Positions 85 to 48,197 of a DNA stretch of 64,000 bases are shown here, piece by piece. Origin of the DNA: Oikopleura dioica (lineage: Eukaryota > Animalia > Chordata); NCBI GenBank assembly GCA_907165135.1, contig OU015566.1:3658001-3722000 (forward strand), written 5' to 3'. Each line of letters starts with the position of its first letter. Positions within the stretch are counted from its first letter, which is position 1. The notes under the pieces are model-generated. The model worked only from the letters and a program-made list of their open reading frames with translations, ran no database searches and was not told where the DNA came from. The position numbers and the translations under genes are program-made.

Positions 85-2354
85 TGGACGGAAAAAATCC
101 AAATTTGAAAAAACTTTTGGAATTTCAATTTTTATTGCTACCATCGAATTCCCCATATTTGAAAACCTAGAAAAAATTATTTGTTTAGACAGGGGTCTTC
201 TAAATCTTTTCTAACTATCATCTAAAATAGCAAAAATGCCCTTTAGGAAAAGCTTCTTTTGAGAGGGTTGCCGGATTTTTCTTTTGATTTCTTTATAGGA
301 TCATCAAGAGACAAGTCTGAGACAGTCGGCGAACCAAAGAAAATAAGAAAGTTTCAATGTCTTCATGCTTAAAATAGGCATTTAAAAACGTGAAATTCGT
401 CAAAAACAACGAGAAACGTGAAAAAACGCTGCACGGTCAGTAATCGGCATTCTATTGAGCAAAAAAGTCGAACAAGTCAAAGGGAAGATATTTCGATATA
501 AATGCCTATCGAAATATATTTATATATATTAATCTTTCAGATCTCCTCTTTAAATACACACAGATTCGACTATTTCGCTTTTTTCAATCAAATGAATTAT
601 CTAGGCTTCTTCGAAACGCAGCACGACTAATTTTTACGCAAATTATTATTTTTGAATGCTTAAAAATAACCATTTATTTTAAAGATGGTCGAAATCTTCG
701 AGCCTCCAGTCTGATTTTTCTCGTGCTGGTTCAAATAGAGTCACTTATCATGTGCACAAAATTTCATGCGTTTTGAAGTGCAGCGCGACCATTTAAAGTA
801 TAAATTATTAGATAAGCTTTTATCAGCTCTAGAATCTGATTTTTCGAGCCTCCAAGCTAATTCCTCTTAACAAAAGTTCGGTTACTATTAGGTACCCGCA
901 TGCAAAATTTCATACAATTTCAGACGCAGCGCGACCCTTTTGACTGAATTGTATCGAAATTTTATAAAAATAGCCATTTATAAGTAAGTTTTGGCCCTAG
1001 AATCCGATTTTCGAGGGCCTCCAATCTAATTTTTCGAGAGCGAAGTAAACCGAGTGCATTCTATCATATTGCAAAATTTCAATCGATTTGAGGCGCAGCG
1101 CGACCATTTTTTAAATAAATTAAAGAAATAGGCATTTATTATTTAATTTTGGCCTTAGAGTCAAAATTTGAGGGGCCTCCAACCCAATTTCTCTCAAGCG
1201 TGGTAAAATGCGTGTTTTCTATCTGTCTACAAAATTTCAATCGATTTGAGACGCAGCGCGACCAATTTTCTTTGACAACTTACTTTATAGTGGTTATAAT
1301 TATTATTTTTGTAAAAAATGGTCGCGCTGCGCCTCAAATCGATTGAAATTTTGCAATATGATAGAATGCACTCGGTTTACTTCGCTTTCGAAAAATTAGA
1401 TTGGAGGCCCTCGAAAATCGGATTCTAGGGCCAAAACTTACTTATAAATGGCTATTTTTATAAAATTTCGATACAATTCAGTCAAAAAGGGTCGCGCTGC
1501 GTCTGAAATTGTATGAAATTTTGCATGCGGGTACCTAATAGTAACCGAACTTTTGTTAAGAGGAATTAGCTTGGAGGCTCGAAAAATCAGATTCTAGAGC
1601 TGATAAAAGCTTATCTAATAATTTATACTTTAAATGGTCGCGCTGCACTTCAAAACGCATGAAATTTTGTGCACATGATAAGTGACTCTATTTGAACCAG
1701 CACGAGAAAAATCAGACTGGAGGCTCGAAGATTTCGACCATCTTTAAAATAAATGGTTATTTTTAAGCATTCAAAAATAATAATTTGCGTAAAAAATTAG
1801 TCGTGCTGCGTTTCGAAGAAGCCTAGATAATTCATTTGATTGAAAAAACGCGAAATAGTCGAATCTGTGTGTATTTAAAGAGGAGATCTGAAAGATTAAT
1901 ATATATAAATATATTTCGATAGGCATTTATATCGAAATATCTTCCCTTTGACTTGTTCGACTTTTTTTGCTCAATAGAATGCCGATTACTGACCGTGCAG
2001 CGTTTTTACACGTTTCTCGTTGTTTTTGACGAATTTCACGTTTTTAAATGCCTATTTTAAGCATGAAGACATTGAAACTTTCTTATTTTCTTTGGTTCGC
2101 CGACTGTCTCAGACTTGTCTCTTGATGATCCTATAAAGAAATCAAAAGAAAAAATCCGGCAACCCTCTCAAAAGAAGCTTTTCCTAAAGGGCATTTTTGC
2201 TATTTTAGATGATAGTTAGAAAAGATTTAGAAGACCCCCTGTCTAAACAAATAATTTTTTTCTAGGTTTTCAAATATGGGGAATTCGATGGTAGCAATAA
2301 AAAATTGAAATTCCAAAAAAAAAGTTTTTTTCAAATTTGGATTTTTACTGTCCA
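85..2354. repeat. Large inverted repeat (arms ~85-1113 and ~1312-2354, ~200-bp spacer) with internal ~155-170-bp tandem units; foldback-transposon-like
   Basis: Left arm tggacggaaaaaatccaaatttg... is the reverse complement of ...caaatttggatttttactgtcca (2354). The arms match throughout with scattered substitutions. The motif GCAGC(G/A)CGAC recurs near 617, 780, 926, 1095 and 1253 and is mirrored in the right arm. No clear TSD. Confidence 0.85.
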
Positions 2355-2511
2355 ATGCCCACGTGACCACTTTTCTTTTCAAAAATGAAAAGGAAAAAAA
2401 AACCGTCAAGACGGCAGCCTAGGTCAATAAAATTCTTCCCACCGCGCCGCCTACAGATTTTGTCCTTTTCCAGATTTTCAAAAGATAAACAGCTCGTCAT
2501 TGGCAAAAATT

Positions 2512-8500: not shown

Positions 8501-11500
8501 GTCTCTGAAACATGTGTAGAATCTGAGTCCTGCTCCTCAAAGAAACCTGGCTCAAGCCAGTATTGGAGTTCAATACAGGTATAAATTATACCGTATAATT
8601 GATGATATATTTTTGACTTATGAAAAGACACTTGCCAAAAAGACCTGACAGAGATGGTTAAAAAGCTGGAAGACCAAAAAATGTCCTTGGAAACAGCACT
8701 CGCTGAAAAATCCGAGCTTCTTTCAAATCTTGAAAATCGAGCAGACACTGGCACGGAACAGCTGCTAGCGATTCAGGAAGAAGCTGATGAATTAAGAACC
8801 AAGGCGAATATGACGGAGGAATTGCAGGCTTTGAATTACGATCTGAAGAAAGCTGCCGAAAAAGCTGAAGCCGAGCTTTTAGGTAACTAAAACTAACTAA
8901 CATTTTCCAACCGATTTAAAGTCGCGAATGCGGAATTAAAAGAAGCTCAAAACGCCAAGAATCTCTTCGAAGAAGAGCTCAAACATGCTACAGATCTATC
9001 CTCATCCCTTGGCCAAGAAAAACAATCCCTACAAGAAGAAGTTGCCGTCCTTCATGCCCGAACAAAGGAGCTTCAAGAAAGCTTGATCAATGCAGGAAAA
9101 GCGCTTGACGATTCGATCCAAGAAAAAGACGAGCTTGAGCGCAACTTTCACGCTCAACTTCGGGAAGGCGAAATGAAGCTGGAGAAGGAGCGACAGCAGT
9201 TCGAAAATGAAATGTCGAACACGAGGCAACAGACAGAATTGCTTCAGCAAAGCTCTGAAGCTGCTCTTTTTAAGGTACATTTGATGCTCTTTTTAATTTT
9301 TTTATCTTTTTTTTCTAGCTTCAAGGAGAGAGACAACAAATCAGTTCCGTCCGTGATCAACTTGTTGAGCAAAAAGGACTGGTAGAAAAATACAAGAATG
9401 AAATTCAAAGCTGGAAGACGAAGTTTGAAGATCAATTTGGCGACAAAACTAGTTTGGAGAAGAAAATCGTAGAGTTGAATCAGAAGATTCAGACTTTGGA
9501 AGAAGATATCGACCAGATTGGAATTGACCGGGATATGTGGAAGAATAAGAGCAAGGAGTTGAATCAAGTTCATGCTGATAAGGTGCGAAAGACAATTGAT
9601 AATGGATTCATTGACTCCTTATTTTAGCTCGCGCTCCAACAAGAGCTCTCCGGAATGATGAACCGTCTGCGCGACGCATCCGGCCTAGCCGAGCAAAAAG
9701 AATCCGAAGTCGAAAAGCTGAAACGTGAGAAAAGACATCTTATTTGGACAGTGATCTATCTCCGGTCATTTTTAGTTAAATACGGTGAGTTGCGCCAGGC
9801 ACTCGATATGGCCGAGAAGGAGCGCCAGTTCGATCTCAAAGAACGGGAAGCGCTGGTTTATAGGGCGGAAGCTCTCCAGCGCGAATTTGATCATACGAAT
9901 AAGTTGCTGCAGGTAAGAAGCGGTGATCATTGGTGAGTTCTTTCATGTTATACAATCAATTATAACAATGAGAATCGGATCAGAAGCCCTTCTCTTTTAT
10001 AATCCTTAATTCCGGTGATTCATAAATTTCCATTTTCTCCCATTCAAAAAAGGACGGGGCTCGCTACCCCCGCCCAAAGAATCTAACTCATGAAATGACT
10101 AGAACGAAAAGTCGAGCAAAGTAAGCGTCGAGGACGAGCTCGCCAGGCTCCGAAAATCGGCGCAGACCGACTTGGACAAGGCTCAAGAGACCAACGCTCT
10201 GAAAGTCAAAGAACTACAGTTAGAAATCGAAAATCTGCAGCAACTGAAACCTGAACAGCTCAAGGCATCGCTCGAAAGAGCGGAGCGGGAATTGGAATCA
10301 ACCAGAACTTCTTCTGAGGTAACTTTCCAATACTTATTCTCCAAAGCTTAAAATTTCTTTCAGGAAATTGTCGAAAAACTCCGCTCAGAAATCGCCTCTT
10401 ACAAATCATCAAACTCCACTCAAATCGAGTCCCTCACCTCCCAACTTGAAGAAGTCTCCACTCAACTCTCTGCCTCCGCCGCTCAAAAATCCGTGCTCGA
10501 ATCCGAGCTTGCCGAAAAAAGTGCCGAGTTCCGCTCAAAACTCGAGCGATATCAAGAAGCAATGGTTGAGCTCGAGCGATCCCTCCGCGAGCGAGAAGCT
10601 TCAAACAGCTCAAACTCGGCCGAATTGAGCGAAACAAAGACGAAACTCGAGCGCAGCGAAAGAGAACTTTCCGAAGCTCGTTCTCAACTCGACGAACTTC
10701 GCAGCTCAATTCTCGAATCTCGCCGCGCTTCCGCTTCTGAACTCGACAAAATCCAGACCGAACTTGTGAATGAAAACAAAAACTATAGAGCTCAACTTTC
10801 AGCAGCTCAATCTGAGCTTTCATCCGCTCAGAGTGAGATTGAGCGATTGAATGCTAATCTATCACGAGTTCGAGAACAACTTGATCGTCAAAGCACTGAA
10901 TCTGCTAGCAGAGAGGATGCGCAAATGGCATCGAGCTCACAATTGAAGGATCAGATGACAAAGATGCAGGTAAGAAAGAAAACTCAAGAATTCTGATCCC
11001 AATTCAACTATTTTCTAGGAACGATTGAACATGGTCGAACTCGAGAAAAACTCAGCTGCTTCGGAACTCACTTCCATTCGCTCAAACCACGACGAGCTTG
11101 AACGAGAGCTAAACAAGCTCAATTCTAGCAATCGAACTCTCACTCTCGAGCGAGAACAACTCTCAAGCGAATTGGCAGAAAGCAAGCGAGAGCGGGAAAA
11201 GCTCGAGGAAAAGTACAACGAGCTCATGATCAAAAAAGAAGAACCAGAAGTTGATACGTCGAAAATTGTCGACGAAGATGGTGATCCAGCGATGGTGAAG
11301 GCGATGAAGAATGAATTGGCGGTGCTCAGGGAGAAGAACAGGATTTTGGAGCAGAAATATAAACTCAACAGGAGAATTTCTCCAAGAGTTCAAATCAAGG
11401 TAAGCCATAACTTAAAAGATTCCATTAGATAACAAATCAAGGCTGGCAAAACGATCGAGCCCCCAGAAATGGCGCCAGAATCTACCTACACTTCCAGCTT

Positions 11501-12133
11501 CGTCCAAGATTCCGAAACGAACCAACCAAGCTCTAGCGCTCAGCTAAGCGTTCTTCGCCACGAGCTGCGCCAGCGAGAAGAGCTCATTTCCCGCCTTGTA
11601 GACGACATCAGCAATATGAAGTCGACGCTGAAAAACAAAGACGACGAAATGTCGACAAAATTTAAGAAGTTCGCTGAGCGCGCGGAAGAGTATTCGGCGA
11701 ATTTGGTGATGGTGGCGCAGCTTCAAAAGTCGGAAAGGAAGTTGAAGAAAGATCTGAAGAAGGCGGAGAAGAGGGCGCTGGGAACATATGACGGCGATGA
11801 TGAATTGAAGGTGATTTTCTTTATCAATTTACTTTCAGAATAAGCGCAAGTTTGTAACTTGAGTATAATCTCTATATTCAGGAAATGCTGAAGCAAAAAA
11901 TCGACGAAATCAGCGCCCTGAAGTCTTCTCATCAAGAAGAGATCAAAAAGCTTAAATATCGCCGGAAATCCCGCCGTTCTCGTCGCTCTAAAGAACCTTC
12001 TGAACACCCAAACTCCACGCTTTCTTCTGAAATCAACGAAAATGCCAATCTTCTCCCTTCGCCAAAAATCGATGCTAAAGAAACAGCGGCGGAGGAAAAT
12101 CCAGACGATTATGTGACTTGTTCAATGATGTAA
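2512..12133 (+). CDS. Very large multi-exon coiled-coil protein, giantin/GOLGB1-like golgin; ends in a CaaX motif (CSMM*). Start and exon limits approximate
   Basis: Chain of E/K/L/Q-rich heptad ORFs (4152-4502, 4776-7550, 7760-8584, 8654-8890, 9083-9385, 10493-10996, 11025-11432, 11469-11843, 11885-12133) separated by short introns. RKLKAALLSRKEL resembles the giantin motif RKLQAALISRKE. Stop after DYVTCSMM at 12131-12133. Confidence 0.6.
3561..3719. mobile_element. 159-bp MITE, Tc1/mariner type (TA TSD, 25-bp TIRs), intronic
   Basis: TA|CAATGGTTGATCCTCGATTGGGAAG ... CTTCCCAATCGAGGATCAACCATTG|TA. Two further internal direct copies of CCTCGATTGGGAAG. Confidence 0.85.
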
Positions 12134-33578: not shown

Positions 33579-34303
33579 CAGTGAAAACCCATTTTAAGGC
33601 CGATTTTCGGATGACAGAGAATTTCAAAAGTGGCCTTAAATTGGATTTTTTTGTCTCGAGTCGGATGACAACAAATTTTTTCCATTCTTTGGATAAAAAA
33701 TGATGAATGAGGGTTATAGGGTTATCGCATATTTCTCTCGCTCGAAGAAAGTATAAATCATGGACTTTTTCCAAATGTGTCCTTTTAACTGAACTCAAGG
33801 TGATTATTTTTTTCATTATTTCAAAAATAATATTCGAAAAACACGTCTGAAAAAAGATAAACATGACAAATGCTAAGAAAAAAGATATGAAGAGATTCAA
33901 GTGAAGACGTCAAAGAATAGTGACGTGAAGAAGACAATTACTGAGCTTTTTCGATAGAAAAATGGTCTGTAAATTCGTCTGCGTGTTTATACACACCTAT
34001 TTAATGATAGATTGGAACTCTTGGACTCAAATCTAAGTCAAAATTTAAAGAGGACCGTAAGAAATCATCGTCAATTAAAAAATTCGAGAAAAAATCATCA
34101 TAGAGTACAAAAAAAGAGAAATAAAAATTATCATTTTTACCAACTCTGGATAAAACACAAGACATCCCGCAGTCGAATAATCAGATATTAAATAGAAATT
34201 GAAAGAAAGTGGCCTTAAAATGGATTTTTTGAGGACGACAGATTTTGGAGATTTTCCGAAAAAGTGGCCTTAAAAGGGCCGGCCTTAAAATGGGTTTTCA
34301 CTG
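33579..34303. mobile_element. 725-bp non-autonomous Tc1/mariner element (TA TSD, ~24-bp TIRs)
   Basis: TA|CAGTGAAAACCCATTTTAAGGCCG ... CGGCCTTAAAATGGGTTTTCACTG|TA. Subterminal repeats AAAGTGGCCTTAAA. No transposase ORF. Confidence 0.9.
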
Positions 34304-34430
34304 TAAAAAGGTTTTATAGCCCCTTTCAATTGAATATTAAAATAACGATCCTATATCTAAATAATTTCAAGAAGAAACAGAAGATGTCTAATTTTATTTA
34401 CACGGCAGTTCATTTCAATTCTTTCTTTAT

Positions 34431-36068
34431 TCAAAGCTCTTTCTCCGATTCCACGCCATACGCCTGGTACGTGTCCGTGCCACCCGTCAGCTCGAGTATT
34501 TTCTCAAAATTGTCCGTGTAGAACAAATAGCTCCAGTAGATCAGTGACAGAATGCCGAACGAAAGCGGGAAGAGCAATCGAGAGGTACGGTCAAGGCTTT
34601 TTGCCATTGTGCGATAATACTGAATTTTAAATCGAGTTTTGGATAGTTTATGGATTGAGCTTACATTTGAAGCTTGTACGTCTTCCTTAAGGGTGTCCTC
34701 TAGAATCTCTTTGACAGGCCGCGCAGGAACAGTCCTATGTCTCTTTGGAGCATGCTTATTGCAAGTTTAATCACCCCCTTTTTTGTCCAAATAACTCACC
34801 AGTTTCCTGACTACTTGATTGATCCCATTCGTCTGGTAGCCCTGCTTCTCTGAGTCTGGATACGGATTCATCATAATCATCATTCGCGTTTGAGTTTGGG
34901 CGCGAGGACCTCTTCCATTTTCATTTTCAACTCTCTCGACTGAAGATTGCTTGATGCTGGTTTTTGAAGAGTGGGAGTGGCAAGATATCATTCGTCGAAT
35001 TAGGCGGTCAATATGTTTTAGCTAGAACAAACTTGTTAAAAGACGAATGGTTCTTTAGGGTTAGGGTTAACCCTCAAGGGGCCTCATGACAAAAAATTGG
35101 ATAAGGGTAACGGTCAAGATAAGGGCAAAGGAAGCCATCTCAAAAGATAGGTGACGTTTTATATCTGACAGTTACATACAGTAAGACTTTGAATTTAAGA
35201 CATTTATGTTCTTTTATTCAAATGAGCTTACTTCATCCCACCCTTAATCTTTACAGAGGCTTCATTTAATCCAATTTTATTGAAAAGGAAGCTTCTGGAA
35301 AATAAGGGTTTCAGCCTTAATGGACCCCCAAGGCATTTGAAAAATATAATTCTTCATTTGAAAATGATAATTTTCGTTCAAACAAGTTCAATGATGTCAT
35401 TCCTAGCATATTGAAATGCATGAGCCTTTTTACATTGAACATGATGTCTAATTGTATCATCGCTAGGTTGGTTCAGCTAGGTACGTCAGATGCGATAATT
35501 GACGGATCATCCTGTATCTCACCTTGAGCTTCCTGCCATAAAGTATCCCCTCGGATTGTCTGGATAAGTAATTGGCGCACGCAAATTCTAGCAGAGCCGC
35601 GAAAACGTATGTGAGACAGAGCATTAGCCAGATGTCGATCGCTTTGACGTATGAAACCTTTGGCAGTGAACTTGCCGCTTTTAAAGCGGTTCTAGAGCGC
35701 TTTTTTCGTCCAAAATCACCAAGAAAAGAGAGCTCTAGAACCGTTCCTGAGCTACTCATCGATGAAATAGTCCAAACCGTTGTTATTCCTTAATAAATTA
35801 TTTCAATTTTATGTTCAAATTTAGTATTTAACTATTCTATTTAGACTAGAAAAGTGCCACCTTAGCAGCAAAAAGAGAGACTCTTAGCAGAATAAATTAA
35901 TGTTAATCCAAAGATAGTAATTAGCTATGTTGCGGTGGTTTCCCTTGAGTATTCTGAATAAGTAATTCGCAGGTACTAAATTGTGCCTGTATAAACGATG
36001 CATTATTGAGCTCACCAAGTGTTGTGCGAGCTGGAGTCGAGTCGATGTTCACCCAAAATCCGAGCCAG
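34431..36068 (-). CDS. Cys-loop ligand-gated chloride channel (glycine/GABA-A receptor-like), 3' exons only (end of M1 to M4), copy A
   Basis: [19 protein letters not shown]|[51 protein letters not shown], and M4 [23 protein letters not shown]. These match the GlyR pattern ARVGLGITTVLT...[17 protein letters not shown] at 34431-34433. Confidence 0.9.
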
Positions 36069-36307
36069 CTTTTTTTTGCGGAATCAAAATGATGGAATTG
36101 GGAAGGGCTTTTTGGGGGGCTTGCTCGTTTCTGATTGGCTGAGATGATAAATACTGGCTTCTGATTGGCTGAGAGGACCCCATAGCCCAAATGGCCCAGC
36201 GACTTCGAGATATCAATACCCTATGGCCCATAAGTTATGGGTTTCAAGTTGAAACTTTCAACAACGATCGGGTCGAAATTGGTCAAATCAGTGTTGACAC
36301 CCTTAAG

Positions 36308-36807
36308 NNNNNNNNNNNNNNNNNNNNNNNNNNNNNNNNNNNNNNNNNNNNNNNNNNNNNNNNNNNNNNNNNNNNNNNNNNNNNNNNNNNNNNNNNNNNN
36401 NNNNNNNNNNNNNNNNNNNNNNNNNNNNNNNNNNNNNNNNNNNNNNNNNNNNNNNNNNNNNNNNNNNNNNNNNNNNNNNNNNNNNNNNNNNNNNNNNNNN
36501 NNNNNNNNNNNNNNNNNNNNNNNNNNNNNNNNNNNNNNNNNNNNNNNNNNNNNNNNNNNNNNNNNNNNNNNNNNNNNNNNNNNNNNNNNNNNNNNNNNNN
36601 NNNNNNNNNNNNNNNNNNNNNNNNNNNNNNNNNNNNNNNNNNNNNNNNNNNNNNNNNNNNNNNNNNNNNNNNNNNNNNNNNNNNNNNNNNNNNNNNNNNN
36701 NNNNNNNNNNNNNNNNNNNNNNNNNNNNNNNNNNNNNNNNNNNNNNNNNNNNNNNNNNNNNNNNNNNNNNNNNNNNNNNNNNNNNNNNNNNNNNNNNNNN
36801 NNNNNNN
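36308..36807. other. Assembly gap (500 N)
   Basis: Run of N. Confidence 1.
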
Positions 36808-37090
36808 CTGATAAGGAGTTTCAAATGACTAAGGCTCTTCGCTCACTATTGAATAAAGTTAATATCAAATTTTTACTTATAATTAATAAAATTAAAATAT
36901 TTTTATTAAAAATAATATTTTTCATTATTAAAAATAATAATTATTTAATTGAATAAAAAGGGTAAGTAACCCGATTTTATTATATATTAAAATAAAGATA
37001 ACCTATGCGATCTTACATCGGAATAATTTTAGAGAAAACAGAAGATGTCTGATTTATTTACACGGCAGTTCATTTCAATTCTTTCTTAAT

Positions 37091-38642
37091 TCAATGCTCT
37101 TTCTCCGCTTCTACGCCATACGCCTGGTACGTGTCCGTGCCACCCGTCAGCTCGAGTATTTTTCAAAATTGTCCGTGTAGAACAAATAGCTCCAGTAGAT
37201 CAGTGACAGAATGCCGAACGAAAGCGGGAAGAGCAATCGAGAGGTACGGTCAAGGCTTTTCGCCATTGTGCGATAATACTGAATTTTAAATCGAGTTTTG
37301 GATAGTTTATGGATTGAACTTACATTTGAAGCTTGTACGTCTTCCTTAAGGGTGTCCTCTAGAATCTCTTTGACAGGCCGCGCAGGAACAGTCCTATGTC
37401 TCTTTGGAGCATGCTTATTGAAAGTTTAATCACCCTTTTTTGTCCAAATAACTCACCAGTTTCCTGACTACTTGATTGATCCCATTTGTCTGGTAGCCCT
37501 GCTTCTCTGAGTCTGGATACGGATTCATCATAATCATCATTCGCGTTTGGGTTTGGGCACGAGGACCTCGTCCATTTTCATTTTCAACTCTTTCGATGGA
37601 AGATTGCTTGATGCTGGTTTTGAAGAGTGGGAGTGGCAAGATATCATTCGTCGAATGAGGCGGTCAATATGTTTTAGCTAGAATAAATTGATTTTCGGAC
37701 GAATGATTTTTAGGGTTAGGGTTAACCCTTAAGCGACCTCATGACAAAAATTTTAAGAGTTAGGGTTAGGTAAAGGGCAATCTCAAAAGCTAAAATGATA
37801 TTTTACTGATAGCTTTATACAGTAAAACATTCAACTTAAGGCTCTCCCTCCCTTAATTCTAATAAGTTGTGTTTATCCGACGCTTTATTTTTTACATAGG
37901 CTTCATTTTATCCAATTAAATATTTGATTAAAGTGAAGCTTTTGGACAATAAGGGAATTTTCGTTCAAACAAGTTCAATGATGTGCATCCTAGCATATTG
38001 AAATGCATGAGTATTTTTACATTGAACATGATGTCTAATTGTATCATCGCTCCGGTTCAGCTAGGTACGTCAAATGCGATAATTGGCATCCTTTATCTCA
38101 CCTTGAGCTTCCTGCCATATAGTATCCCCTCGGATTGTCTGGATAAGTAATTGGCGCACGCAAATTCTAGCAGAGCCGCGAAAACGTATGTGAGACAGAG
38201 CATTAGCCAGATGTCGATCGCTTTGACGTATGAGACCTTTGGCAGTGAACTTGCAGCTTTGACACGGTTCTAGAGCGCTTTTTCGTCCAATATCATCATC
38301 AAAAAGAGCTCTAGAACCGCTCCTGAACTGCTCATTGACGAAATAGTCCAAACCGTGGTTATGCCTTAATTAATTATATCAATTTAGTGTTCAAATTTAG
38401 TATTTAACTATTCTATTTCGACTAAAAAGTGCCACCTTAGCAGCAAAAAGGTAGACTCTTAGCAGAATAAATTAATGTTAATCCAAAGATAGTAATTAGC
38501 TATTTCGCGGTGGTTTCCTTGAGTATTCTGAATAAGTAATTCGCAGGTACTAAATTGTGCCTGTATAAACAATGCATTATTGAACTCACCAAGTGTTGTG
38601 CGAGCTGGAGTCGAGTCGATGTTCACCCAAAATCCGAGCCAG
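37091..38642 (-). CDS. Second copy (B) of the same GlyR/GABA-A-like 3' exons; tandem duplicate or alternate haplotype
   Basis: Exons and introns are co-linear with copy A with scattered substitutions and indels. Homology extends to the 3' flank (36808 corresponds to ~33358). The Tc1 MITE is absent from this copy. Confidence 0.85.
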
Positions 38643-38844
38643 CTTTTTGCGGAATCAAGATTATGGATTTGAGAAGGGATTTTGGGGGACTTGCTCGTTT
38701 CTGATTGGCTGAGAGAATAAATATTGACTTCTGATTGGATGAGAGGACCCTATAACCCGAATGGCCAAGCGACTTCGAGATTTCAATTAAGAGTGTCAAC
38801 AACGATCAGATCGAAATTGGTCAAATCATTGTTGACACCCTTAA

Positions 38845-39214
38845 GGGGGTCGACGAGAATCGGGATTTCCGTGACCAAAAATGCGGGAAAACCGGATTAG
38901 ATAGGGAAAATCTGATGTTATTGATGGATAGAAAAGGGTTGAAAAAATCAGGCGGCGAAAACTAGAAAAATTTTCGCCAGAAAAATTGGTCAAAAATCCC
39001 CTCAAAGTAGGGGCATTTTCGCGAAAATGCACCAAAAATGGCGATTTTTTCACATTTTCTTAATTTCAACCCCTAAATCTCATTTTTATCAAATGTTTTT
39101 AGGCTCAACAGATTCGGGAGGATCTGACAATTCCAAAATATAAGTTTCATACCCAGACTATGTGTACAAGCGAAATTACGATCACCCCTGAAAAAATTCT
39201 CGTCGACCCCCCCC
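38845..39214. mobile_element. 370-bp MITE with TTAA TSD and GG termini (Kolobok-like)
   Basis: TTAA|GGGGGTCGACGAGAAT ... ATTCTCGTCGACCCCCCCC|TTAA. An adjacent 50-bp TTAA-flanked mini-element at 38791-38840 (GAGTGTCAACAA...TTGTTGACACCC) shares the TTAA at 38841-38844. Confidence 0.8.
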
Positions 39215-39267: not shown

Positions 39268-39574
39268 TGTTATGCGCTGCCTTGCAATGGTGTATCAATC
39301 TTGCAATAAAAACTAACGCATATTTTGGTATAACGTATTTTGTGTTTTATTTCATGTCTTGCACATGGTATGAAATGAGAACGTTACTGATCTGAAGGAA
39401 GGTGTCTTCCTTATATACTGATCGCTGAGCCCCCAGGCTATCCTACGCTGCATCCCGAGCCATCCAGGTTCTTATTGGTTGATCAATTATGCACGAGGCA
39501 TATCGTCAGGATGGAACGAGATGCTCAGGCTAACCTGGGCACTCAGCTGCATAAACATAAGTTATATCATAACA
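39268..39574 (-). repeat. 3' LTR (307 bp) of the giant retroelement
   Basis: 7-bp terminal inverted repeats TGTTATG (39268-39274) / CATAACA (39568-39574). On the minus strand TATATAA (39417-39411) precedes AATAAA (39351-39346), giving a U3-R-U5 layout. The polypurine tract abuts the LTR. Confidence 0.9.
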
Positions 39575-39587
39575 CTTTACCCTCCTT
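39575..39587 (-). promoter_or_regulatory. Polypurine tract (plus-strand primer) directly upstream of the 3' LTR
   Basis: Minus strand reads AAGGAGGGTAAAG|TGTTATG. Confidence 0.85.
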
Positions 39588-40483: not shown

Positions 40484-41403
40484 TCACCTTTTCCTTCTAT
40501 TCCCTTTCTCTTCTTCCTCCGAGTGTTCGAGGAGTTCTGCGATGTAGATTTGAAGCCGCCGGGTTCCCGCGTTCACAAGTCTTGCTATTTCCTTGACTGA
40601 CTTTGGTCGGTTTATTCGGTCGATATATACGTAGGTGCTGGCGGCGGCGAGCGTTTTTGCTGAGGTTGTGGCTGATGGGGTTTCTTTGCTTATCAGGATG
40701 GCATGCGCTTCGATTTCTTTCGCTTGGTGATTAGTTAATCGAAGCGCAGCTGCTATTCTTTGGATGTAAGGTTTGATTCTGTTTTTAATGTGTGCGTCGA
40801 TTTTTGCTGTTCTGAGGAAGGTATCGAATTTGCGAATCATTCTCTGGGTGATTAGGGAGAGGTGCCAGTTGCCTGGCAGATTTCTTCCAAGCTCAGGTCG
40901 CAGTTCTCTTGCTTACTGGCCAGGTAGAGGCACGCCGCTATTGCCACGGGTTCTGCGCGATTTTGGCGGTGGAAGTACCAAGTTGTTCCCTGTTTTTCTT
41001 TGAGGTATAGCTTTTTGATGAGTTCGTAAGCTCGTAGTTTTGTATTAGTGAGTCCTGAGTATATCAATCGGGCTCCTGCTTCTTCGATGAGGTCTTCACA
41101 TTCCCGAAGGACAGTTTGTAACCTATTTTTCTCGCGGTTGGATAGTTGGGCCTCGTTTGATATGATGCATTCGTCCCCTGTTTCTTCGTTATTCCGGGTG
41201 AAAGTTTTTGGCAAGTTTTCGTTTGGTTTGATGGCCGTCACTCGCATTGATTTTTCTGGGTTGAGTGGTGGGCATCTTTCTCCTACGACAAGTCCGCATA
41301 TTTTGCAGATAAGGTCTCCTGTCACAAGCCTTTCGTCGGCTATGTGCTTTGGGCCATGATATGAGCAGGTAAAGGCGGGAAGAGAGCAGCCTGGAGCAGA
41401 CAT
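40484..41403 (-). CDS. TFIIB-like general transcription factor (Zn ribbon + two cyclin folds), split by a 1-nt shift at 40855-40857
   Basis: CSYH...GDLICKICGLVVGER (TFIIB CPNH...GDMICPECGLVVGDR); AIAACLYLASKQEN..LSLEEIC; second repeat TLAAASTYVY...KSVKEIARLV. Adding one C at TCTCCCTAA fuses 40852-41403 with 40484-40840. Confidence 0.85.
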
Positions 41404-41440
41404 TCTAAAGCGTGTTTCGTTACAATTTGGTAGTCGAATT

Positions 41441-42412
41441 TTACGTCCGCCTGATTTTCCATTGTCTTGACAGAATTCTATGAATTATTTTAATCAGGTA
41501 AAACAGTCCGCCTGTTGCTAGCGTTAGAGTGCCCGCTAGGGTTGCACCGATCATGGTACAGGAGATAAACGTTTTTTCCGTGAATTTGTCGACAGTACAG
41601 ACGGACTCGGATTGGGCACATGCGTGCTGTGCTTTCCAGAAGAAGTAACGCGGGTCAGCAGGATCATATCCAGTTTCCGCGAAATTCCTCGTCTCTTTTT
41701 CTGATAGTATCGCGTATTTATCAATTTTGCAGATAAATGAAGCTGGGGTCTTCAACAGTTGTCCTGCCTTAAGGAGGGTCGTCCAAGGTGTTTCGTGGTT
41801 GTATTGGTGTTTGAGGAGCACAAAATTCATAATTAGAAAAATAAGGTCAATGACGCACAGACTGGTTAGGAACAAGATTCGTTTCCAGTTCGTTGATGGT
41901 GTCGTGATGACCAGGCGATTACCTTTGTATTTTTCTTTGAAGCCTTGCATATGCCCATATTTTGAGCGGAGTTCATTAAGCCTCTTCAGTTGAAATGTCC
42001 AGCTTGGCCGGTCCTGGCGATTTGGCCAGACGATTAATTCTGTCGGTTTTGGGTTTATGTCGTGTTCGAGTAATCGCATAAGCTGTACGTCTTCTGCGGG
42101 TTTCAGGATAAGATGTCCGAGCCCCAGAGTGACGATCCCAATAATGACGAGGTGCCAAGTCCAAAATCTAGTCAGGTTGACTGGTAAAAATTGGTTATAG
42201 CAAACTGAGCTACACAGTTGCTGTTTGGTGCTACATCTGAATCCGCCTGAATCGTTTGAATAAATTTCCGTACCAACTGTTAATAGGACAATACTTCTTA
42301 CCAGCAAAGTTGCGTACCAGACTTTACCGAGGGGACCGAGGTGTGGGAGCAAATCATTGAGCCCAGAAAGCAGCCCACTTGCCTTTTCTCCGATAATTTT
42401 ATGTTTATCCAT
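41441..42412 (-). CDS. Connexin (gap junction protein), intronless, 323 aa
   Basis: LGKVWYATLLVRSIVLL (TM1). EL1 with exact C-x6-C-x3-C: FRCSTKQQLCSSVCYN, then RFW. EL2 FIC...CAQSESVCTVDKFTEKT (cf. PCPNTVDCFISRPTEKT). Four hydrophobic segments. Confidence 0.92.
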   Translation of the reverse strand: MDKHKIIGEKASGLLSGLNDLLPHLGPLGKVWYATLLVRSIVLLTVGTEIYSNDSGGFRCSTKQQLCSSVCYNQFLPVNLTRFWTWHLVIIGIVTLGLGHLILKPAEDVQLMRLLEHDINPKPTELIVWPNRQDRPSWTFQLKRLNELRSKYGHMQGFKEKYKGNRLVITTPSTNWKRILFLTSLCVIDLIFLIMNFVLLKHQYNHETPWTTLLKAGQLLKTPASFICKIDKYAILSEKETRNFAETGYDPADPRYFFWKAQHACAQSESVCTVDKFTEKTFISCTMIGATLAGTLTLATGGLFYLIKIIHRILSRQWKIRRT

Positions 42413-42458
42413 TCTGACTCTGAACAGTTTAAGATTGGAGGGGCTTTAGTTCGAGAGT

Positions 42459-42671
42459 TTATGGAGTTCGGGTAGGTGCAGATGGGATCAAGATTTCTTC
42501 TTCGGGGGCCTCCCGATTCTGGGTTTTACTTATCCCTAGTTTTCGTTTGATCTTGTCGCGGAGAGGAACTCTCCGGGTCACCTGCTCCCTTCCCTCAATC
42601 GTCGGGTCAGCTGGTGTTGCTAGGCAAAGGCACGAGAGCCATTTATGCCAGAATTGCGGAGCGAGATGCAT
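42459..42671 (-). CDS. Small unknown protein with CLC motif and C-terminal PSAP
   Basis: MHLAPQFWHKWLSCLCLAT...EEEILIPSAPTRTP*. ATG at 42671 is preceded by an AG acceptor-like motif. Confidence 0.4.
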   Translation of the reverse strand: MHLAPQFWHKWLSCLCLATPADPTIEGREQVTRRVPLRDKIKRKLGISKTQNREAPEEEILIPSAPTRTP

Positions 42672-42764
42672 AGTCTTTTTCAATCTGAATGTTCGGTATT
42701 GGACTCTCAGTTCCGATTTACTTGCGGTTAATGCGGGCTTAATTATAATTAAAGCTAAGGGATT

Positions 42765-43622
42765 CTAGCGATTAATAGCGCGTCTTGGTCTTGTTTGTAT
42801 GCCACCGTAGGGTACGTGCAGGTTCCCTAGTTTAGCTGCAAGCGCTCTGAAGGTTAAATCTTGGGTTCCGTCGCTGCTCTTATATTTGACAAGGGTATGG
42901 AACTCGGCAGGGCCACAGTTCTGTAGGAGAATAGGGTAAATTATTCTGAGGGCCGCGGCGTCTGATAGTGGTTCTTCGCCAGGTGACTTTTGCAGATCTG
43001 CGCAGAGTCGTCCGAAGAAAATGATCAGGGCTTCGCCTTCTTTGCGTTTTCCGTTTACTTCATTCCCCTTATTATGGTTTTGATGTTTCGCTGAAATACA
43101 TTTCTTCATTCTCTCGATGCAAAGCTCGAGTTTGGTTTTTTCATTCCTATTTAGGCCTTTCTCGAGGTGTGCAAACTCTGGTCTGAGAGTCATAAACAAA
43201 AGACGAGTGAGATCAACATCTAGAAGCCCACATTTTCTTGCGCTGTTGAACCCTTGTCTGTTTCTTGCCACATGTTGTGCGAAGCTGATTTTTTCGTTTG
43301 GTCCCCATACATAGAGCCGGAATTTTTCCTTGGCGTCGAGGTATGGCAAGTCTCGATCGTATACCAGGTTCGTGGTAAGAATCTTCCTCATCCGATCTAC
43401 GCATAGATCAAAATTTGTTTTCTCAATTTCGTCGAGGAGAGTCTCGTAACTCCTTTGTTCTGGTGTCAGTGTTATGAGAAAGAGACTTGTCAATTGTTCG
43501 TCGGAGAGCCCTGCTTTCCGTGCGTCCCGGAATCCTTGTTGGTTCCTCGAGACATGGTTCTCGAAAAAAATGTTTTCGGTAGGAAGCCATACGTAGAGCT
43601 GAAATGTGTTTGTGGAGAGCAT
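42765..43622 (-). CDS. Gag capsid-domain paralog with tandem duplicated N-terminal capsid-like repeat
   Basis: Repeats FQLYVWLPTENIFFENHVSRN...GLSDEQLTSLFLITLTPE and FRLYVWGPNEKISFAQHVARN...GLLDVDLTRLLFMTLRPE match Gag FQLKNWKTEENITYWEHLTRN...GLTDSQMVSLFMLTLRPE. Then KRKEGEALIIFFGRL matches Gag KRRPQESLLAFFIRL. Likely ATG at 43622 (TTTAG-A-ATG). Confidence 0.85.
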   Translation of the reverse strand: MLSTNTFQLYVWLPTENIFFENHVSRNQQGFRDARKAGLSDEQLTSLFLITLTPEQRSYETLLDEIEKTNFDLCVDRMRKILTTNLVYDRDLPYLDAKEKFRLYVWGPNEKISFAQHVARNRQGFNSARKCGLLDVDLTRLLFMTLRPEFAHLEKGLNRNEKTKLELCIERMKKCISAKHQNHNKGNEVNGKRKEGEALIIFFGRLCADLQKSPGEEPLSDAAALRIIYPILLQNCGPAEFHTLVKYKSSDGTQDLTFRALAAKLGNLHVPYGGIQTRPRRAINR

Positions 43623-43694
43623 TCTAAACATCATAGTGCTATCCTTTGGTATATTTTAATTTAGGTGGTTTCTGAATCTGTTGCAACTTCAATC

Positions 43695-44024
43695 TTATAG
43701 GGGGGTGTTGCAGTACTTGCAGTAAGGTCTGTTTGCTAGCCATTTTCGCAGGCACGCATTATGGTAGTAGGCGTAACAGCATGTCATGACCGATATGTCT
43801 TCAGGCAGGTCTTCCTGGCAGAGCCCGCAATCACTTTCGTACTTTTCTACTGCGCTTATCTTGATTTTCTTTGTCAGCATGAGCCTTTCCTCCAATTCTT
43901 CGCCTTCGACTTTCCTGAAGATGATTTTTATTTCAATGAGCGATCCGTCCGGTTCGAGGCGGAAATGTGAGTTGATGTTGTCATATTCTTCCTTCTTTTC
44001 AAGTATATTTACCGCATCGAGCAA
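43695..44024 (-). CDS. RING-finger protein (variant RING-H2); start uncertain (no ATG in frame)
   Basis: CGLCQEDLPEDISVMTCCYAYYHNACLRKWLANRPYCKYC. Confidence 0.7.
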   Translation of the reverse strand: MLDAVNILEKKEEYDNINSHFRLEPDGSLIEIKIIFRKVEGEELEERLMLTKKIKISAVEKYESDCGLCQEDLPEDISVMTCCYAYYHNACLRKWLANRPYCKYCNTPL

Positions 44025-44071
44025 CGATTCGTACTTAACTTTATGTTTCTTTTCCAGCCAATCCTTAATTG

Positions 44072-44539
44072 TTATTGGGATGGTTCCTTTCGGCTTAACC
44101 TAAAGTATTTTCGGGTCATGTTCAATCTGTTCTCGTTTACCGGTAAGATGCATAGTGGGCAAGAATCCTTCCATATGAGCCAGTTTCGTAGACAATGTTG
44201 GTGAAAGAAGTGTCCACAGGTGGGTATAAGGTTTGCTGTTTTGTCAAATTCTTCCAGGCAAATGCGGCAGGGGTCGCCTACCTCTTTTTCCCATTCTGTC
44301 AATTCAATGCGTGAAAGTGAGTCTAAGAGTGCTTGCAGTTCCTCGCACGTGGCTCCTCCTTCAACGAATTGTTGCAAAGTTCTTGTTCCATCTGGGTTGA
44401 TTACTTCTAGGCGCCCTATTTTCTTCGGTGGTGTCATTATTTCTTCCAAGAAACATGGCAGTGTTTGTTCCTTCTGCCTTGAATTATGCGGTGATTCTTC
44501 GTTTTCAGTTTGTGCTGCTTCCTCTTGGTTCTCGTCCAT
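44072..44539 (-). CDS. RING-H2 E3 ubiquitin ligase-like protein
   Basis: CRICLEEF...CGHFFHQHCLRNWLIWKDSCPLC. ATG preceded by TTAAG-T. Confidence 0.9.
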   Translation of the reverse strand: MDENQEEAAQTENEESPHNSRQKEQTLPCFLEEIMTPPKKIGRLEVINPDGTRTLQQFVEGGATCEELQALLDSLSRIELTEWEKEVGDPCRICLEEFDKTANLIPTCGHFFHQHCLRNWLIWKDSCPLCILPVNENRLNMTRKYFRLSRKEPSQ

Positions 44540-44591
44540 ACTTAACAGGGTAAGTTAAGAGTGTCAGAGTTATCTTTTTCTTATTATTATT

Positions 44592-45366
44592 TTATTTTGC
44601 TATGATTTCCTGGCAAATTGGACAGGTATTTTTGTGGAGAAGCCATTTTAGGATGCAGTGAGTGTGGAAAGTGTGCCCGCACGAGGGGAGGAATGAACAG
44701 CACTTGGCCGCGAATTCTTCCATGCAGATGCCGCAAGGGTATTCAAGAGTCTCATGCATGGTGGAATGTCGAAGTGTGTCCTCGCGTCTTTCATATTCGC
44801 GAGTCCCAATTTCTTCAATTGTTTTTTGTTTATGTCTACGCTTCCCATTTGGTATGAGGTATCTTCCTTGGCACTGTCCCCGAATACCTTCTATTTCTCC
44901 TACCCTTGGCTGTGGTCTCATTTTCAATTGATTCCGTCCTTCAAGGTTAACAGAAGTCGGTGCCTTTTTGAAACTGTTCTTTTCTTCTAAAAGCCCGGAC
45001 GTCTTTCTGCCTGTTGGGTCTTTCGGTGGTTCCGTTGATGGAGTAGGCCCCGGTGTTTGGGCGTTTTCATTTGTTTCACCCTGATTAATTTTTTACTTTT
45101 TCCCAACCATCTAGGGCACTTACATGTGCAGAGGTTCGACAGTTACTAAGTTCCATCAAGTGTTTGATTTGGCTGATTGCCCTCTCGTGGTTTGCAACGA
45201 TTTTGAAGAGAATCTCTCCATTGTTGTAACCGGTCTTGTCTACCACGTCTTCTTTTTTCCATTTTCCTATTAGATCGATGAACTTACTGTTGCAATTCGG
45301 GCAATTCCAGGGTTTTCGAATCTCCTCGCAATTCAGGTTACAACCTAAGCAGCGAAAGCTAGCCAT
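44592..45366 (-). CDS. RNF115/RNF126-like protein: N-terminal C4 zinc finger + C-terminal RING-H2, interrupted by a frameshift near the A6 run 45089-45094
   Basis: FRCLGCNLNCEEIRKPWNCPNCNSKFIDLI (cf. RNF126 FFCHCC...YICPRCESGFIEEL). RING CGICMEEF...CGHTFHTHCILKWLLHKNTCPIC. The frame between 45090 and 44927 is open in the RING frame. Confidence 0.7.
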
Positions 45367-45415
45367 CTGAAATCGGGTTCAGGTTAAGATCGGTAACTCT
45401 GATTGTTCAAGCAGT

Positions 45416-45892
45416 CTACTCCCGCCGGGCGGTAATAAAACAGACTATTTTGAGATGCTTCTGAATGGTTTGGGCTGTTGCCAGAATTTGCGCTGTGGAG
45501 AAGTTCCATTGCTGTGCTACTTTCCTCGCCGACATTGGTGTTGGCGAAAATTTGTATGCTAAGTACGCGGATGATGCAGCAATTCTTTTCGGGCTCGCTT
45601 TGATGTTGGGGTGCCAGGCATGGTCGGCTATTTGTCTTGCCCGAGTGATCCAATCCGAATCAGCGAGATGAGCTTGTTGATCGATGTATTTTCTTGCAAT
45701 CTCTAGCTCGTTTTTGGTCTCCTTGTTGAATCGTGTCCGTACTAACGGTGCGGTTTTGTAAATCATCCAATTTGGGCATTTCAGCATTTCTCCGATCGCT
45801 GTTGTTGTTTTTGGCTCTGGCGAAAATTTGTACGCCAAATAAACTGCGCTGGTCACGATACCTTTTGGGGAAAGCTTTGGGTCAGTTGTCAT
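45416..45892 (-). CDS. Second TFIIB-core-like protein (two cyclin-fold repeats, no zinc ribbon); frame open ~37 codons further upstream
   Basis: Internal repeat SPKGIVTSAVYLAYKFSPEPKTTTAIGEML / SPKRIAASSAYLAYKFSPTPMSARKVAQQW resembles TFIIB [31 protein letters not shown]. Confidence 0.65.
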   Translation of the reverse strand: MTTDPKLSPKGIVTSAVYLAYKFSPEPKTTTAIGEMLKCPNWMIYKTAPLVRTRFNKETKNELEIARKYIDQQAHLADSDWITRARQIADHAWHPNIKASPKRIAASSAYLAYKFSPTPMSARKVAQQWNFSTAQILATAQTIQKHLKIVCFITARRE

Positions 45893-46422
45893 TACTCGTT
45901 TAACGACAAGTTTGGCATAATTGTAGATTTGGTTCGGAAGGAGGTGCTTGTAGGATTTGAGTAGCTCGAGATGAACGGATTCCTCCTTAGGGAAGATTAG
46001 CTCTTATCATTTTGTTTATTTACCTTTATTTCCGGCTCGGTTTTTTGGAGCTAGGTTCGAATCTCTTGGGGAGCTCATTTTCAATCTTGAAAGAAATCTT
46101 ATTAATTCCGGTTTTCAGTGATAATTCCTTATAATCGATTGGTGTTTTCAGATGTGGTTGTTGGGTATGGTTGTAGGAGGGGGATGGTTAGCCCGGAAAT
46201 ACATATGGTTCAGGGTTATTGAAAGGCAGGTGGGAAGACTGTTTCGAAGAATTTGTCTACGTTTCCGTCTCCGATGAGATTCTCCGTTGGCATCTGGATT
46301 GGTTGTTCCCTTGTTGTCGGCTGGATTTGAGTGGTGTGTTGCCCGGGGAAAATTTGTGTTGTCTGAGTTGTTGGTCCCGGAATTGCTACAGACGGATCCA
46401 TTCGGGCGATTTTCTAGATTGT

Positions 46423-47037
46423 TTAATTTCGGGACACATCTTGCAAGCTTACCTTCGGTGGCTCCGCGCCTACGCCCTGTCTGGGTAGTTTCTGTCGTCT
46501 CATCATGAGATTGAAGTACAGGTGTGCGAATATTGTTTTAGGGCTCCAGTAAGCCGGTGTTTGTACGTTTGCCAATCGAGGAAACACGACTTGCACTATT
46601 TTTCGATAGCCTTCCTCGTGAAGAGGTGAGTGACCGTGGCTTTTCATAAAGCCTATCGCGGTTCCCATTAGAAGTCCTCCTTGTTCTGCAGGCAGGTCTC
46701 GACCCTCGGACAATTCTTCGAGGGTTTGCTTCACTGCCTCTATCATAGCGTCGATCCCAATTTTGCTACCGAGGAATTTGTCTTGAGTTCCTCCGCATCC
46801 TTCCCCGAATGCTCTACCACGGTCAAGTCCCTTCGCGGCGAGCTCCTCTTTGGGCATTGCAGTTGGTTGATTCATGACAAGGGAGAGGATGTAATTTCCT
46901 CCGGTTTGCTTCATTCTTAAATTACTTTTTGTCAGCAAATGCTTTCTAAAAGACGTTGACTTGTTTAAGACGGAAGGAAATGAGTTCGGGGAAGTATTAT
47001 CCAGCTTTTCTCTTATCGCTGGGAAAGTGTCAGACAT
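46423..47037 (-). CDS. Unknown 204-aa protein
   Basis: Clean ATG-stop ORF co-oriented in the cassette. No motif recognised. Confidence 0.55.
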   Translation of the reverse strand: MSDTFPAIREKLDNTSPNSFPSVLNKSTSFRKHLLTKSNLRMKQTGGNYILSLVMNQPTAMPKEELAAKGLDRGRAFGEGCGGTQDKFLGSKIGIDAMIEAVKQTLEELSEGRDLPAEQGGLLMGTAIGFMKSHGHSPLHEEGYRKIVQVVFPRLANVQTPAYWSPKTIFAHLYFNLMMRRQKLPRQGVGAEPPKVSLQDVSRN

Positions 47038-47570
47038 GCAGGTTTAACAGGTTTTTTCGGGTATCTTCCAGTGATTCTTCATTTTTTATTTTTGTGTACG
47101 CCTCTTCGATGATTGCCGGAATCGATTCTATTCCCGTGTTTACGTCGCGAGCGAATTCCTTGGCGACCGCTGGTTCTTGAACATTGATGCTCCCAATTTC
47201 TTTGATGATCGCGCGATCAAAACCTTCTTTTTTGCCAAGGGCTTTTCAACTTTCTTTGCATAGTTCGGAATGCGATCAGCAGTGCGAGGTCCTTGGTGGA
47301 AGACAAAGTTGTTGTCGCTAGTCGTTGTCTCGGCAGTTTCGCTATTGTTGCTTGTTCCTGCCAAGTTTGGGATCTTAGCCATAGTTCGGCTTTCTGGTTT
47401 ACCAAATGAACGGCGTCTCTCAGGGGACGCTGCCATTCTTCTTCAGCATTGAAACCAATCAACTTCGGTTTCCCCAGGATTTCTCGTACGATAATTTCTT
47501 GGAAGGAGGAAAGCTTGATCGCGTCTTCCGCTGTTCCAATGATAATATTGTCAATTTTTGCCTGTTCCAT
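47030..47570 (-). CDS. Unknown family X protein, copy 1 (probably extended past 47217 by a -1 shift at T6 47228-47233)
   Basis: Ungapped by-eye alignment with 58393-58752 (GT....I.LS.F.E...R.IL.KP...EEW..P...AV...E.WL..QT...LA...L.ST.DL...IAFR..QR.L). The -1 frame continues EGFDRAIIKEIG...LHV*. Confidence 0.6.
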
Positions 47571-47629
47571 TTGTTCTTAAAAGAAGGAACAATTACTCAA
47601 TTTGCTCTTTAGCTTCTTATAATTCGTGG

Positions 47630-48163
47630 TTAGAAGAAACGCAGTGGGACTGTTTGGTTGCAGTACGGACAGCGCGAGCAGCGTGGTTGGTTTAACCACT
47701 TGCGAATACAACCTTGATGAAAAACATGATTACAACGTAGGCAAGCAAGGTTGTTGAAGAGTCCTTCCTGGCATATTGCGCAGATGTCCACTTCCTTTTG
47801 GCGTTGCTTGTCCACGGGAAAGTCCTTACCGCCTTCCTTTTCGGTTCTTAGCTTCTCTTTGGGCGAGGAGGGCGTCGGAATGCGGAATCGCATCATCTTA
47901 AATACGTGATTCATTAAGCCGCTCTATTTTTTCTGTTTGCTCTTTACCAGGTCGGTGTTTAAGGACTTAAGCTTCTCCCAGTGCCTTTTCTCTATCGTCA
48001 GAGTCCACTTGATTTGTCCCAGGGTGGTCCAGTTTGTATTTGAATCTCGTGTGCTGGCTCGATCATTGATTATTTCGATGAAATCGCTATTGCAATTTCT
48101 ACAGCCGTCTTCGAAATTTATGGACGCCCATTGAGTGTTGCAATAAGCGCATCTGTACCGCAT
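47630..48163 (-). CDS. Second RNF115/RNF126-like zinc finger + RING-H2 protein, with one in-frame TAG at 47924-47926
   Basis: MRYRCAYCNTQW...GCRNCNSDFIEII; same frame continues TAG AGC GGC TTA ATG into CAICQEGL...CNHVFHQGCIRKWLNQPRCSRCPYC. ATG preceded by CCTTCAG. Confidence 0.75.
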
Positions 48164-48197
48164 CTGAAGGGAGCCTGTTACCTATTCACGTCTTTTA

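Follow-up and report, generated by a model that had tools for sequence, protein, structure and literature searches.

Eukaryotic TFIIB (PF08271 + PF00382; PDB 29vf_M, 1VOL) combines a CxxH zinc ribbon, a linker and ordered cyclin repeats, and its ribbon recruits RNA polymerase II (Pol II), as described in PMC7111264. Tetrahymena Emit3 is a divergent TFIIB with ribbon and core that is missing most of the B-reader; it is a host gene for silencing and is tied to transposon transcription (PMC12082453). Among mobile genomes, TFIIB mimics include ASFV C315R and M1249L and vaccinia Rap94, which serve a virus-encoded RNA polymerase (PMC11579359, PMC8119876). Giant Ty3/gypsy elements exceeding 20 kb, namely Burro of planarians and foamy-like fish ERVs, carry host-derived ubiquitin-pathway cargo, in Burro as a 5-kb-scale polyprotein within one giant ORF, and the reviewed maximum for LTR elements is ~25 kb internal (PMC6431247); transcription factors have zero occurrences in that review. 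The Tor elements of Oikopleura are gypsy-type, carry gag, pol and env, and have downstream genes that are spliced or internally promoted, and TFIIB has zero occurrences in the paper on them (PMC4402516). Across the literature searched, DNA-virus cases were described, and no retrotransposon with its own TFIIB was found. To our knowledge, retroelements are thought to be wholly dependent on host general transcription factors, using activators at most.

We analysed a 64-kb stretch of Oikopleura dioica DNA (hereafter the window), in which a giant Ty3/gypsy LTR retrotransposon on the minus strand carries two genes, A and B, as cargo (Table 1). The element is at least 23 kb long and its 5' end lies beyond the window, which holds a single LTR copy with TATATAA at 39417 and AATAAA at 39351, in agreement with the TATA-containing LTR of the preliminary description. 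Gag is followed by protease, reverse transcriptase, RNase H and integrase, the Ty3/gypsy order, and ORFs cover 92% of one strand versus 49% of the other. The element shares its host species and gypsy type with the Tor elements; however, no env family was matched among the window ORFs scanned, and hydrophobic stretches occurred in 4/81 ORFs, none of them long except in the connexin. Its pol forms a 100/100 clade with P0011 and P0012, and none of its 24 matches is a named Tor. Like Burro and the foamy-like fish ERVs, it exceeds 20 kb and bears ubiquitin-pathway cargo of host derivation; unlike in Burro, its ORFs are small, separate and numbered in dozens, flanking gag-pol on either side, its LTR measures 307 bp, and acceptor-like sites are present. 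The cargo block contains RING genes at 43695, 44072, 44592, 47630 and 51556 and two small Cys ORFs paralogous to each other; internal duplications are frequent. No TBP-like ORF was found among 78/81 minus-strand ORFs scanned. A Teratorn-like fusion with a DNA virus was rejected, as viral hallmark families were absent from 78/81 ORFs scanned in the part of the element that lies within the window.

Table 1. Features of the retrotransposon and its cargo in the window
Feature	Position	Strand	Remarks
3' LTR	39268..39574	-	307 bp, TGTTATG...CATAACA ends
Purine-rich, PPT-like tract just upstream of 3' LTR	39575..39587	-	
Gene A C-piece (other frame): cyclin repeat 2 and basic tail	40484..40912	-	
Gene A N-piece: CxxH zinc ribbon, truncated B-reader, linker, cyclin repeat 1	40852..41403	-	stops at frame break
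TTTAG splice-acceptor-like site, 1 nt before gene A ATG	41405..41409	-	
Connexin cargo gene, intronless	41441..42412	-	Pfam PF00029, E 5.7e-18
Stand-alone gag-like paralogue, two internal units	42765..43634	-	
Cargo block: five RING genes, gene B, small Cys ORFs, orphan ORFs	43695..51861	-	
Gene B: two tandem repeat-2-type cyclin folds, no ribbon	45416..46003	-	open frame
pol: protease, RT, RNase H, integrase	52505..55987	-	three frame breaks, zero in-frame stops
gag with CCHC knuckle	56034..57915	-	one frame break relative to intact gag of L001
Cks1-like cargo gene	61105..61413	-	Pfam PF01111, E 1.9e-26
Second stand-alone gag-like paralogue, upstream of gag	61571..62332	-	
Ras-family-like fragment, probably cargo	63039..63422	-	Pfam PF00071, E 2.9e-5

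Sequence and profile comparisons confirmed gene A as TFIIB-derived, as the preliminary description had proposed. The top PDB match of its 183-aa N-piece is full-length TFIIB (E 5.6e-7), and hhalign against a five-sequence TFIIB profile gave 98.4%. The zinc ribbon is likewise borne out, with all four ligands present (C13/H16/C33/C36); its block of 41 residues aligns to human TFIIB 9-48 and is the best-kept part of A, and the C/H/C/C ligands, GD and GL.VG.R are invariant in A and five TFIIBs. Both cyclin folds claimed earlier were recovered in order, below curated cut-offs: on TFB PRK00423 the C-piece covers repeat 2 (profile 201-288, E 0.0034), following immediately and collinearly on the N-piece (169-194), and its score of 12.0 bits with the TFIIB profile was reached by 0/200 shuffles. 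The B-reader had been called unrecognisable, and its EWRTF helix is indeed missing; the next R-V strand is kept as MRVT, so the reader is truncated rather than beyond all recognition. At ten TBP contacts, A has one identical residue (S249), two conservative changes (R169 to K, F177 to L), four other changes and three positions that could not be mapped, and its TBP surface appears partly eroded. We take the BRE-contact residues of TFIIB to be V283 and R286. In its deleted reader helix, eroded TBP contacts and retroelement location A differs from eukaryotic TFIIB. A search of 1.84 billion proteins gave only five non-self matches to A at E <= 0.001, with 28-41% identity; no relative outside its own cluster was found in 5.8 billion proteins (search limited to 100-321 aa). 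An origin from the Pol III factors BRF1/BRF2 was rejected, since yeast Brf1 reached only E 0.63 compared with 5.6e-7 for TFIIB; the C-piece also stops shortly after repeat 2, without a long C-terminal extension of the BRF type. The structure models of the two genes are of low confidence (pLDDT 47 and 51), and that of A was built on a TFIIB alignment, so its fold match to TFIIB is not independent.

Gene B has the repeat-2 motif in common with eukaryotic TFIIB and differs in its repeat2+repeat2 layout, missing ribbon and location in a retroelement. The repeated SPK.I...AYLAYK units noted earlier are genuine, with z = 15 between the two repeats and 0/1000 shuffles as high. Each unit aligns with TFIIB repeat 2 (profile 221-298 and 227-287; 22.4 bits; 0/200 shuffles), so B is not the normal repeat1+repeat2 core that the term core-only had implied and is instead a tandem repeat-2 dimer. 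Its start had been placed at 45892; however, the reading frame stays open as far back as 46003, and a start at 45892 loses the two opening helices, which are predicted better than the rest of the model. The ATG at 46010 is in a different frame, and a 5' frame break at the start of B is probable. No zinc ribbon was found in its own frame or in three frames over 46420-45900. B reaches none of the curated cut-offs (Pfam TFIIB E 0.0023), and NCBIfam gave no match. Profile and fold searches placed TFIIB/TFB ahead of cyclins. For B, Foldseek ranks 1-14 were all TFIIB/TFB, none at E <= 0.001, and the sequence profile favours TFIIB repeat 2, whereas VIA-align gave a near tie (Z 7.2 for TFIIB, 7.1 for cyclin C). 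In the ESM Atlas, 10/10 family matches fell in one clan, with short viral TFIIB-repeat proteins as neighbours. A relative in another lineage (P0003) shares 61% identity and has a weak Cyclin_C hit as its sole Pfam match. That B is a true cyclin is disfavoured. B retains equivalents of D243, P246 and S249, and 3/4 repeat-2 TBP contacts. B may or may not be a plain duplicate of the core of A: its alignment with the A C-piece gave z 4.5 and with ordinary TFIIBs z up to 6.3. Metagenome contigs searched with B yielded no match.

Gene A had been described as full-length; in fact, the N-piece stops at 40852-40854, the C-piece lies in another frame, and the second known copy (P0002) has its break at this site too and shifts there to a different frame, each copy stopping after repeat 1. 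Relative to the intact P0011, pol has three frame breaks and no stop over 1167 aligned codons. As the two copies of A disagree in frame and pol has breaks without stop codons, the break in A is likely, though unproven, to be an assembly error. The A N-piece recurs letter for letter on a second contig of 17.09 Mb together with the cargo proteins 60489-60962 and 49356-49865, and exact look-ups of window proteins returned matches for 1/10 and 2/10. A divergent relative (L002, 66% identity in pol DNA) shares with the window element, order included, the first three cargo ORFs that follow pol; one apparent L002 cargo match was not significant, and neither was the second half of the DEK-like region. 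No TFIIB gene was recovered in related loci, L002 ending before the expected position, and viral contigs searched with A and with pol gave nothing. We rejected the explanation that a host TFIIB gene was caught beside the element, because neither A nor B has introns, both sit in the interval from pol to the 3' LTR, and the second contig carries A along with distant cargo.

Taken together, A likely serves the element as an alternative TFIIB of its own, and B would be a modulator that lacks the ribbon; we favour this reading of the TFIIB-derived cargo genes tentatively, at a little under an even chance. A would recruit host Pol II to the element's own promoter; unlike the ASFV and vaccinia systems, the element has no RNA polymerase of its own and must act on that of the host. 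Its ribbon would dock on Pol II and initiation would proceed with loose start-site choice, as in Emit3, which A resembles in having ribbon and core without most of the B-reader and differs from in being carried by the element itself. B, unable to recruit Pol II, would either stabilise or compete at TBP. If most of the frame breaks reflect recent slips or errors in the consensus, active copies would make a single A protein. Separate cargo mRNAs may arise through splicing or SL trans-splicing at acceptor-like sites: TYYAG occurs within 15 nt before the first ATG in 13/47 ORFs versus 22/309 other ATGs (p = 1e-4), compared with 2/31 versus 17/325 on the opposite strand, and no such site precedes the reported ATG of B (45892).

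The preliminary description had offered retargeting of Pol II or interference with host initiation, and the sequence features fit both; for A, we lean towards retargeting. Interference would make the proteins decoys, with A, even as a short ribbon piece, filling the Pol II dock and B filling TBP, so that host transcription, for example of silencing or defence genes, is damped together with the RING ligases. In favour of decoys, A retains the ribbon but neither the reader helix nor a large part of the TBP surface, B has TBP-contact equivalents and no ribbon, both A copies stop after repeat 1, and the remaining cargo seems aimed at the host (RINGs, Cks1, Ras-like, connexin). TFIIB is also often targeted by viruses (PMC8119876). 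However, a general block of initiation would presumably also shut down the Pol II promoter of the element itself, and Emit3 illustrates that loss of the reader does not necessarily entail loss of function (PMC12082453); we regard decoys as rather unlikely.

Frame breaks in A, gag, pol and probably B, frequent internal duplications and the low similarity scores of B are what would be expected if these genes were captured host mRNAs decaying without function in a permissive element. This is improbable given that A shows no nonsense codon beyond its single break despite ~70% amino-acid divergence, with its metal ligands intact, that B is 61% conserved in another lineage, and that ORF coverage is strand-biased and cargo order is held in common with L002. 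Divergence without nonsense codons and the B relative instead suggest long-term selection on A and B, in favour of an alternative TFIIB and its modulator. Ty3 integration uses the TFIIB-related Brf1. By analogy, the two proteins might direct the integration complex towards promoters or towards chromatin occupied by Pol II, without any role in transcription, much as Ty3 integrates beside Pol III genes (10.1101/2021.07.27.453949), but the sole element end in the window is not at an obvious promoter and we consider such tethering very improbable.

By coding content, the element ranks among the longest LTR elements. The genome of O. dioica is known as very compact, and so large an element in such a host is relevant to how much sequence reverse transcription and packaging can handle. 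A retroelement carrying TFIIB would make the boundary with large DNA viruses less sharp and offer a tractable animal system for the role of reader-less TFIIB. More broadly, and doubtfully at present, a family of giant, virus-like LTR retroelements of larvaceans may encode basal transcription machinery of their own, comprising a reader-less TFIIB for host Pol II and a TBP-engaging repeat-2 dimer, with dozens of captured genes expressed from an operon that the spliced-leader (SL) system of the host resolves; if true, this would be a retroelement rewiring Pol II initiation as large DNA viruses do.

The minus-strand block running from 39268 to the window end has an A-rich coding strand and holds two TFIIB-like genes, termed A and B, with ORFs of at least 80 aa covering 92% of the coding strand versus 49% of the opposite one. 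It contains a gag with a CCHC knuckle and a pol encoding protease, RT, RNase H and integrase in the Ty3/gypsy arrangement, and terminates in an LTR (see table). No second LTR copy was found in the 64-kb window, and thus the 5' end of the element lies beyond it; direct evidence supports an extent of at least 23 kb, as far as 62332, and its composition suggests a length above 24.7 kb. The cargo includes a connexin, five RING genes, Cks1, a Ras-like fragment and a pair of stand-alone gag-like genes. One of this pair is internally duplicated, and they could change particle size to suit a very long RNA or serve as restriction factors. The retroelement carries a channel gene (the connexin), and no env was recognised in it. 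The position of cargo upstream of gag is unusual for accessory genes, and one protein encoded there recurs, identical, on a second contig. The small CxxC...CxxC ORFs are presumably similar to the zinc finger at the N-terminus of RNF126-type ligases, a similarity that a follow-up search did not confirm. Outside the element, the exons in the tandem duplication, which may be an assembly artefact, carry a motif that we take to resemble a Cys-loop receptor.

Features of the window, with the element on the minus strand
Feature	Position	Strand	Details
Long inverted repeat	66-2373		Near-perfect; arms ~1.1 kb, with 150-bp repeats inside; foldback or MITE-like element
Host gene, long coiled-coil protein	4752-12000	plus	
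Host gene, ACE-like peptidase M2	16151-17161	plus	
Host gene, ABC transporter	21836-24733	minus	
Tandem 2.6-kb duplication	34300-38850		Surrounds N gap
LTR	39268-39574	minus	307 bp; TGTTATG...CATAACA ends, TATATAA, AATAAA, purine tract upstream
Gene A	40852-41403 (N-piece), 40484-40912 (C-piece)	minus	Pieces in different frames
Connexin	41441-42412	minus	Intact, intronless; acceptor-like site present
Stand-alone gag-like paralogues	42765-43634, 61571-62332	minus	30-46% identity to gag capsid part
Small CxxC...CxxC ORFs	45085-45366, 47924-48163	minus	Paralogous; each immediately upstream of a RING gene
Gene B	45416-46003	minus	
Pro/Gln/Thr-rich ORF pieces	46030-46401	minus	Acidic-hydrophobic patch; immediately upstream of gene B
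Orphan ORF pair	47030-47576, 58177-58791	minus	Duplicated, 31-39% identity; flanking gag-pol
Cargo 5' of gag	57963-63422	minus	~6 kb: Cks1, Ras-like, orphans

Relatives of the window pol accounted for 7/24 matches, two of them close and intact (76-77%) and five at 37-44%; the pol tree placed the window copy and the two close relatives in a 100/100 clade nested in a 100/99 clade of eight. A metagenome scan yielded two related loci out of 307 candidates. In one (L001), gag is intact and overlaps pol. In the other (L002), pol is intact and the three ORFs after it are homologues of the first cargo genes in the window, arranged in the same order (E = 1e-11, 1.5e-9 and 4.7e-7); a fourth ORF gave no match. 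This locus covers 3 kb past pol, short of the expected TFIIB gene position.

Gene A is certainly TFIIB-derived. Human TFIIB was the top PDB match of its N-piece (E = 5.6e-7; yeast Brf1, 0.63), and five non-self proteins among 1.84 billion matched at E ≤ 0.001 (28-41% identity), all of which align as TFIIBs and two of which are named, both as TFIIB. Against a profile of these five the N-piece reached 98.4% (hhalign), and an Atlas search agreed with the assignment. The C-piece matches repeat 2, immediately after the N-piece on the TFB profile, with a score equalled in 0/200 shuffles; its pairwise hhalign value was weak (4%), and a PDB search with it gave no relevant match. The preliminary description of a full-length gene with a divergent B-reader stands in part: the ribbon and both repeats are collinear, but the pieces lie in separate frames and both copies are broken; the EWRTF reader helix is deleted, but the R-V strand remains recognisable (hhalign).

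Neither gene A copy is intact (0/2), because the window copy stops at 40852-40854, next to a short C run, and the second (P0002, which carries the label Oikopleura dioica and clusters with gene A, on a 17.09-Mb contig) follows 183 identical residues with 23 in the third frame; the copies differ at one site. Compared with intact metagenomic relatives, pol showed three frame breaks and no stops over 1167 aligned codons, and gag one frame break. Two further cargo proteins (157 and 169 aa; 2/10 looked up) are letter-identical on two contigs. We infer that consensus error in a repeat would fit many indels and no substitutions better than decay.

Gene B is, with good probability, also TFIIB-derived. 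Its halves are homologous to each other (z = 15), and each of them matches TFIIB repeat 2, so the repeated units of the core-only gene proposed earlier are real, but both are of repeat-2 type and the start was placed too short: the open frame reaches back to 46003, 37 codons upstream of the ATG first reported. An ATG at 46010 sits in a different frame, and the Pro/Gln/Thr-rich pieces belong either to a gene of their own or to a broken extension of gene B at its N-terminus. Reading native letters against human numbering, the first unit retains D243, P246 and S249 among four repeat-2 TBP contacts, and the V283/R286 positions, presumably BRE contacts, are altered. The single-sequence model was poor (pLDDT 47; residues 11-40 at 71-82); TFIIB/TFB chains filled Foldseek ranks 1-14, none attaining E = 0.001, and TFIIB and cyclin C tied in VIA-align. 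Atlas neighbours were short and mostly viral, 16-52% of members carrying TFIIB repeats, and one relative was found (P0003; 61% identity across 77% of the query).

In 13/47 ORFs a TYYAG was no more than 15 nt from the first ATG, compared with 22/309 other ATGs (p = 1e-4). At a distance of up to 2 nt the counts were 8/47 versus 6/309, and the opposite strand showed no excess. Such an acceptor-like site precedes the gene A ATG and is absent before gene B's reported ATG. Trans-splicing occurs in O. dioica, where an unpaired acceptor is enough, as described in PMC6883708, and Tor elements, which are gypsy-type elements of this species, use cis-splicing or internal promoters according to PMC4402516; either route could serve to express the cargo genes.

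TFIIB-like genes are a real component of the element. Cargo-carrying gypsy giants (as described in PMC6431247) and viral TFIIB mimics (PMC8119876, PMC11579359) are already known; in searches of the open-access literature we found no report of a TFIIB within a retroelement or of a giant cargo-bearing element in Oikopleura, though the element may be present in supplementary material such as repeat libraries.

The ribbon is the best-preserved part of gene A. At ten TBP-contacting residues, taken from a figure legend in PMC7111264 and placed by alignment, gene A has one identical, two conservative and four changed positions, and three are unmappable. This eroded TBP surface and the anatomy of gene B point to a possible decoy role, a close second that we regard as rather unlikely. 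It is improbable that the genes are mere passengers, and an integration tether is less probable still. We tentatively favour, at a little under an even chance, gene A as a putative alternative TFIIB, because the ribbon is conserved, the LTR has a TATA box and the reader-less Tetrahymena TFIIB Emit3, as described in PMC12082453, gives precedent for a functioning TFIIB without the reader. As such, gene A would pair with host Pol II to serve the element.
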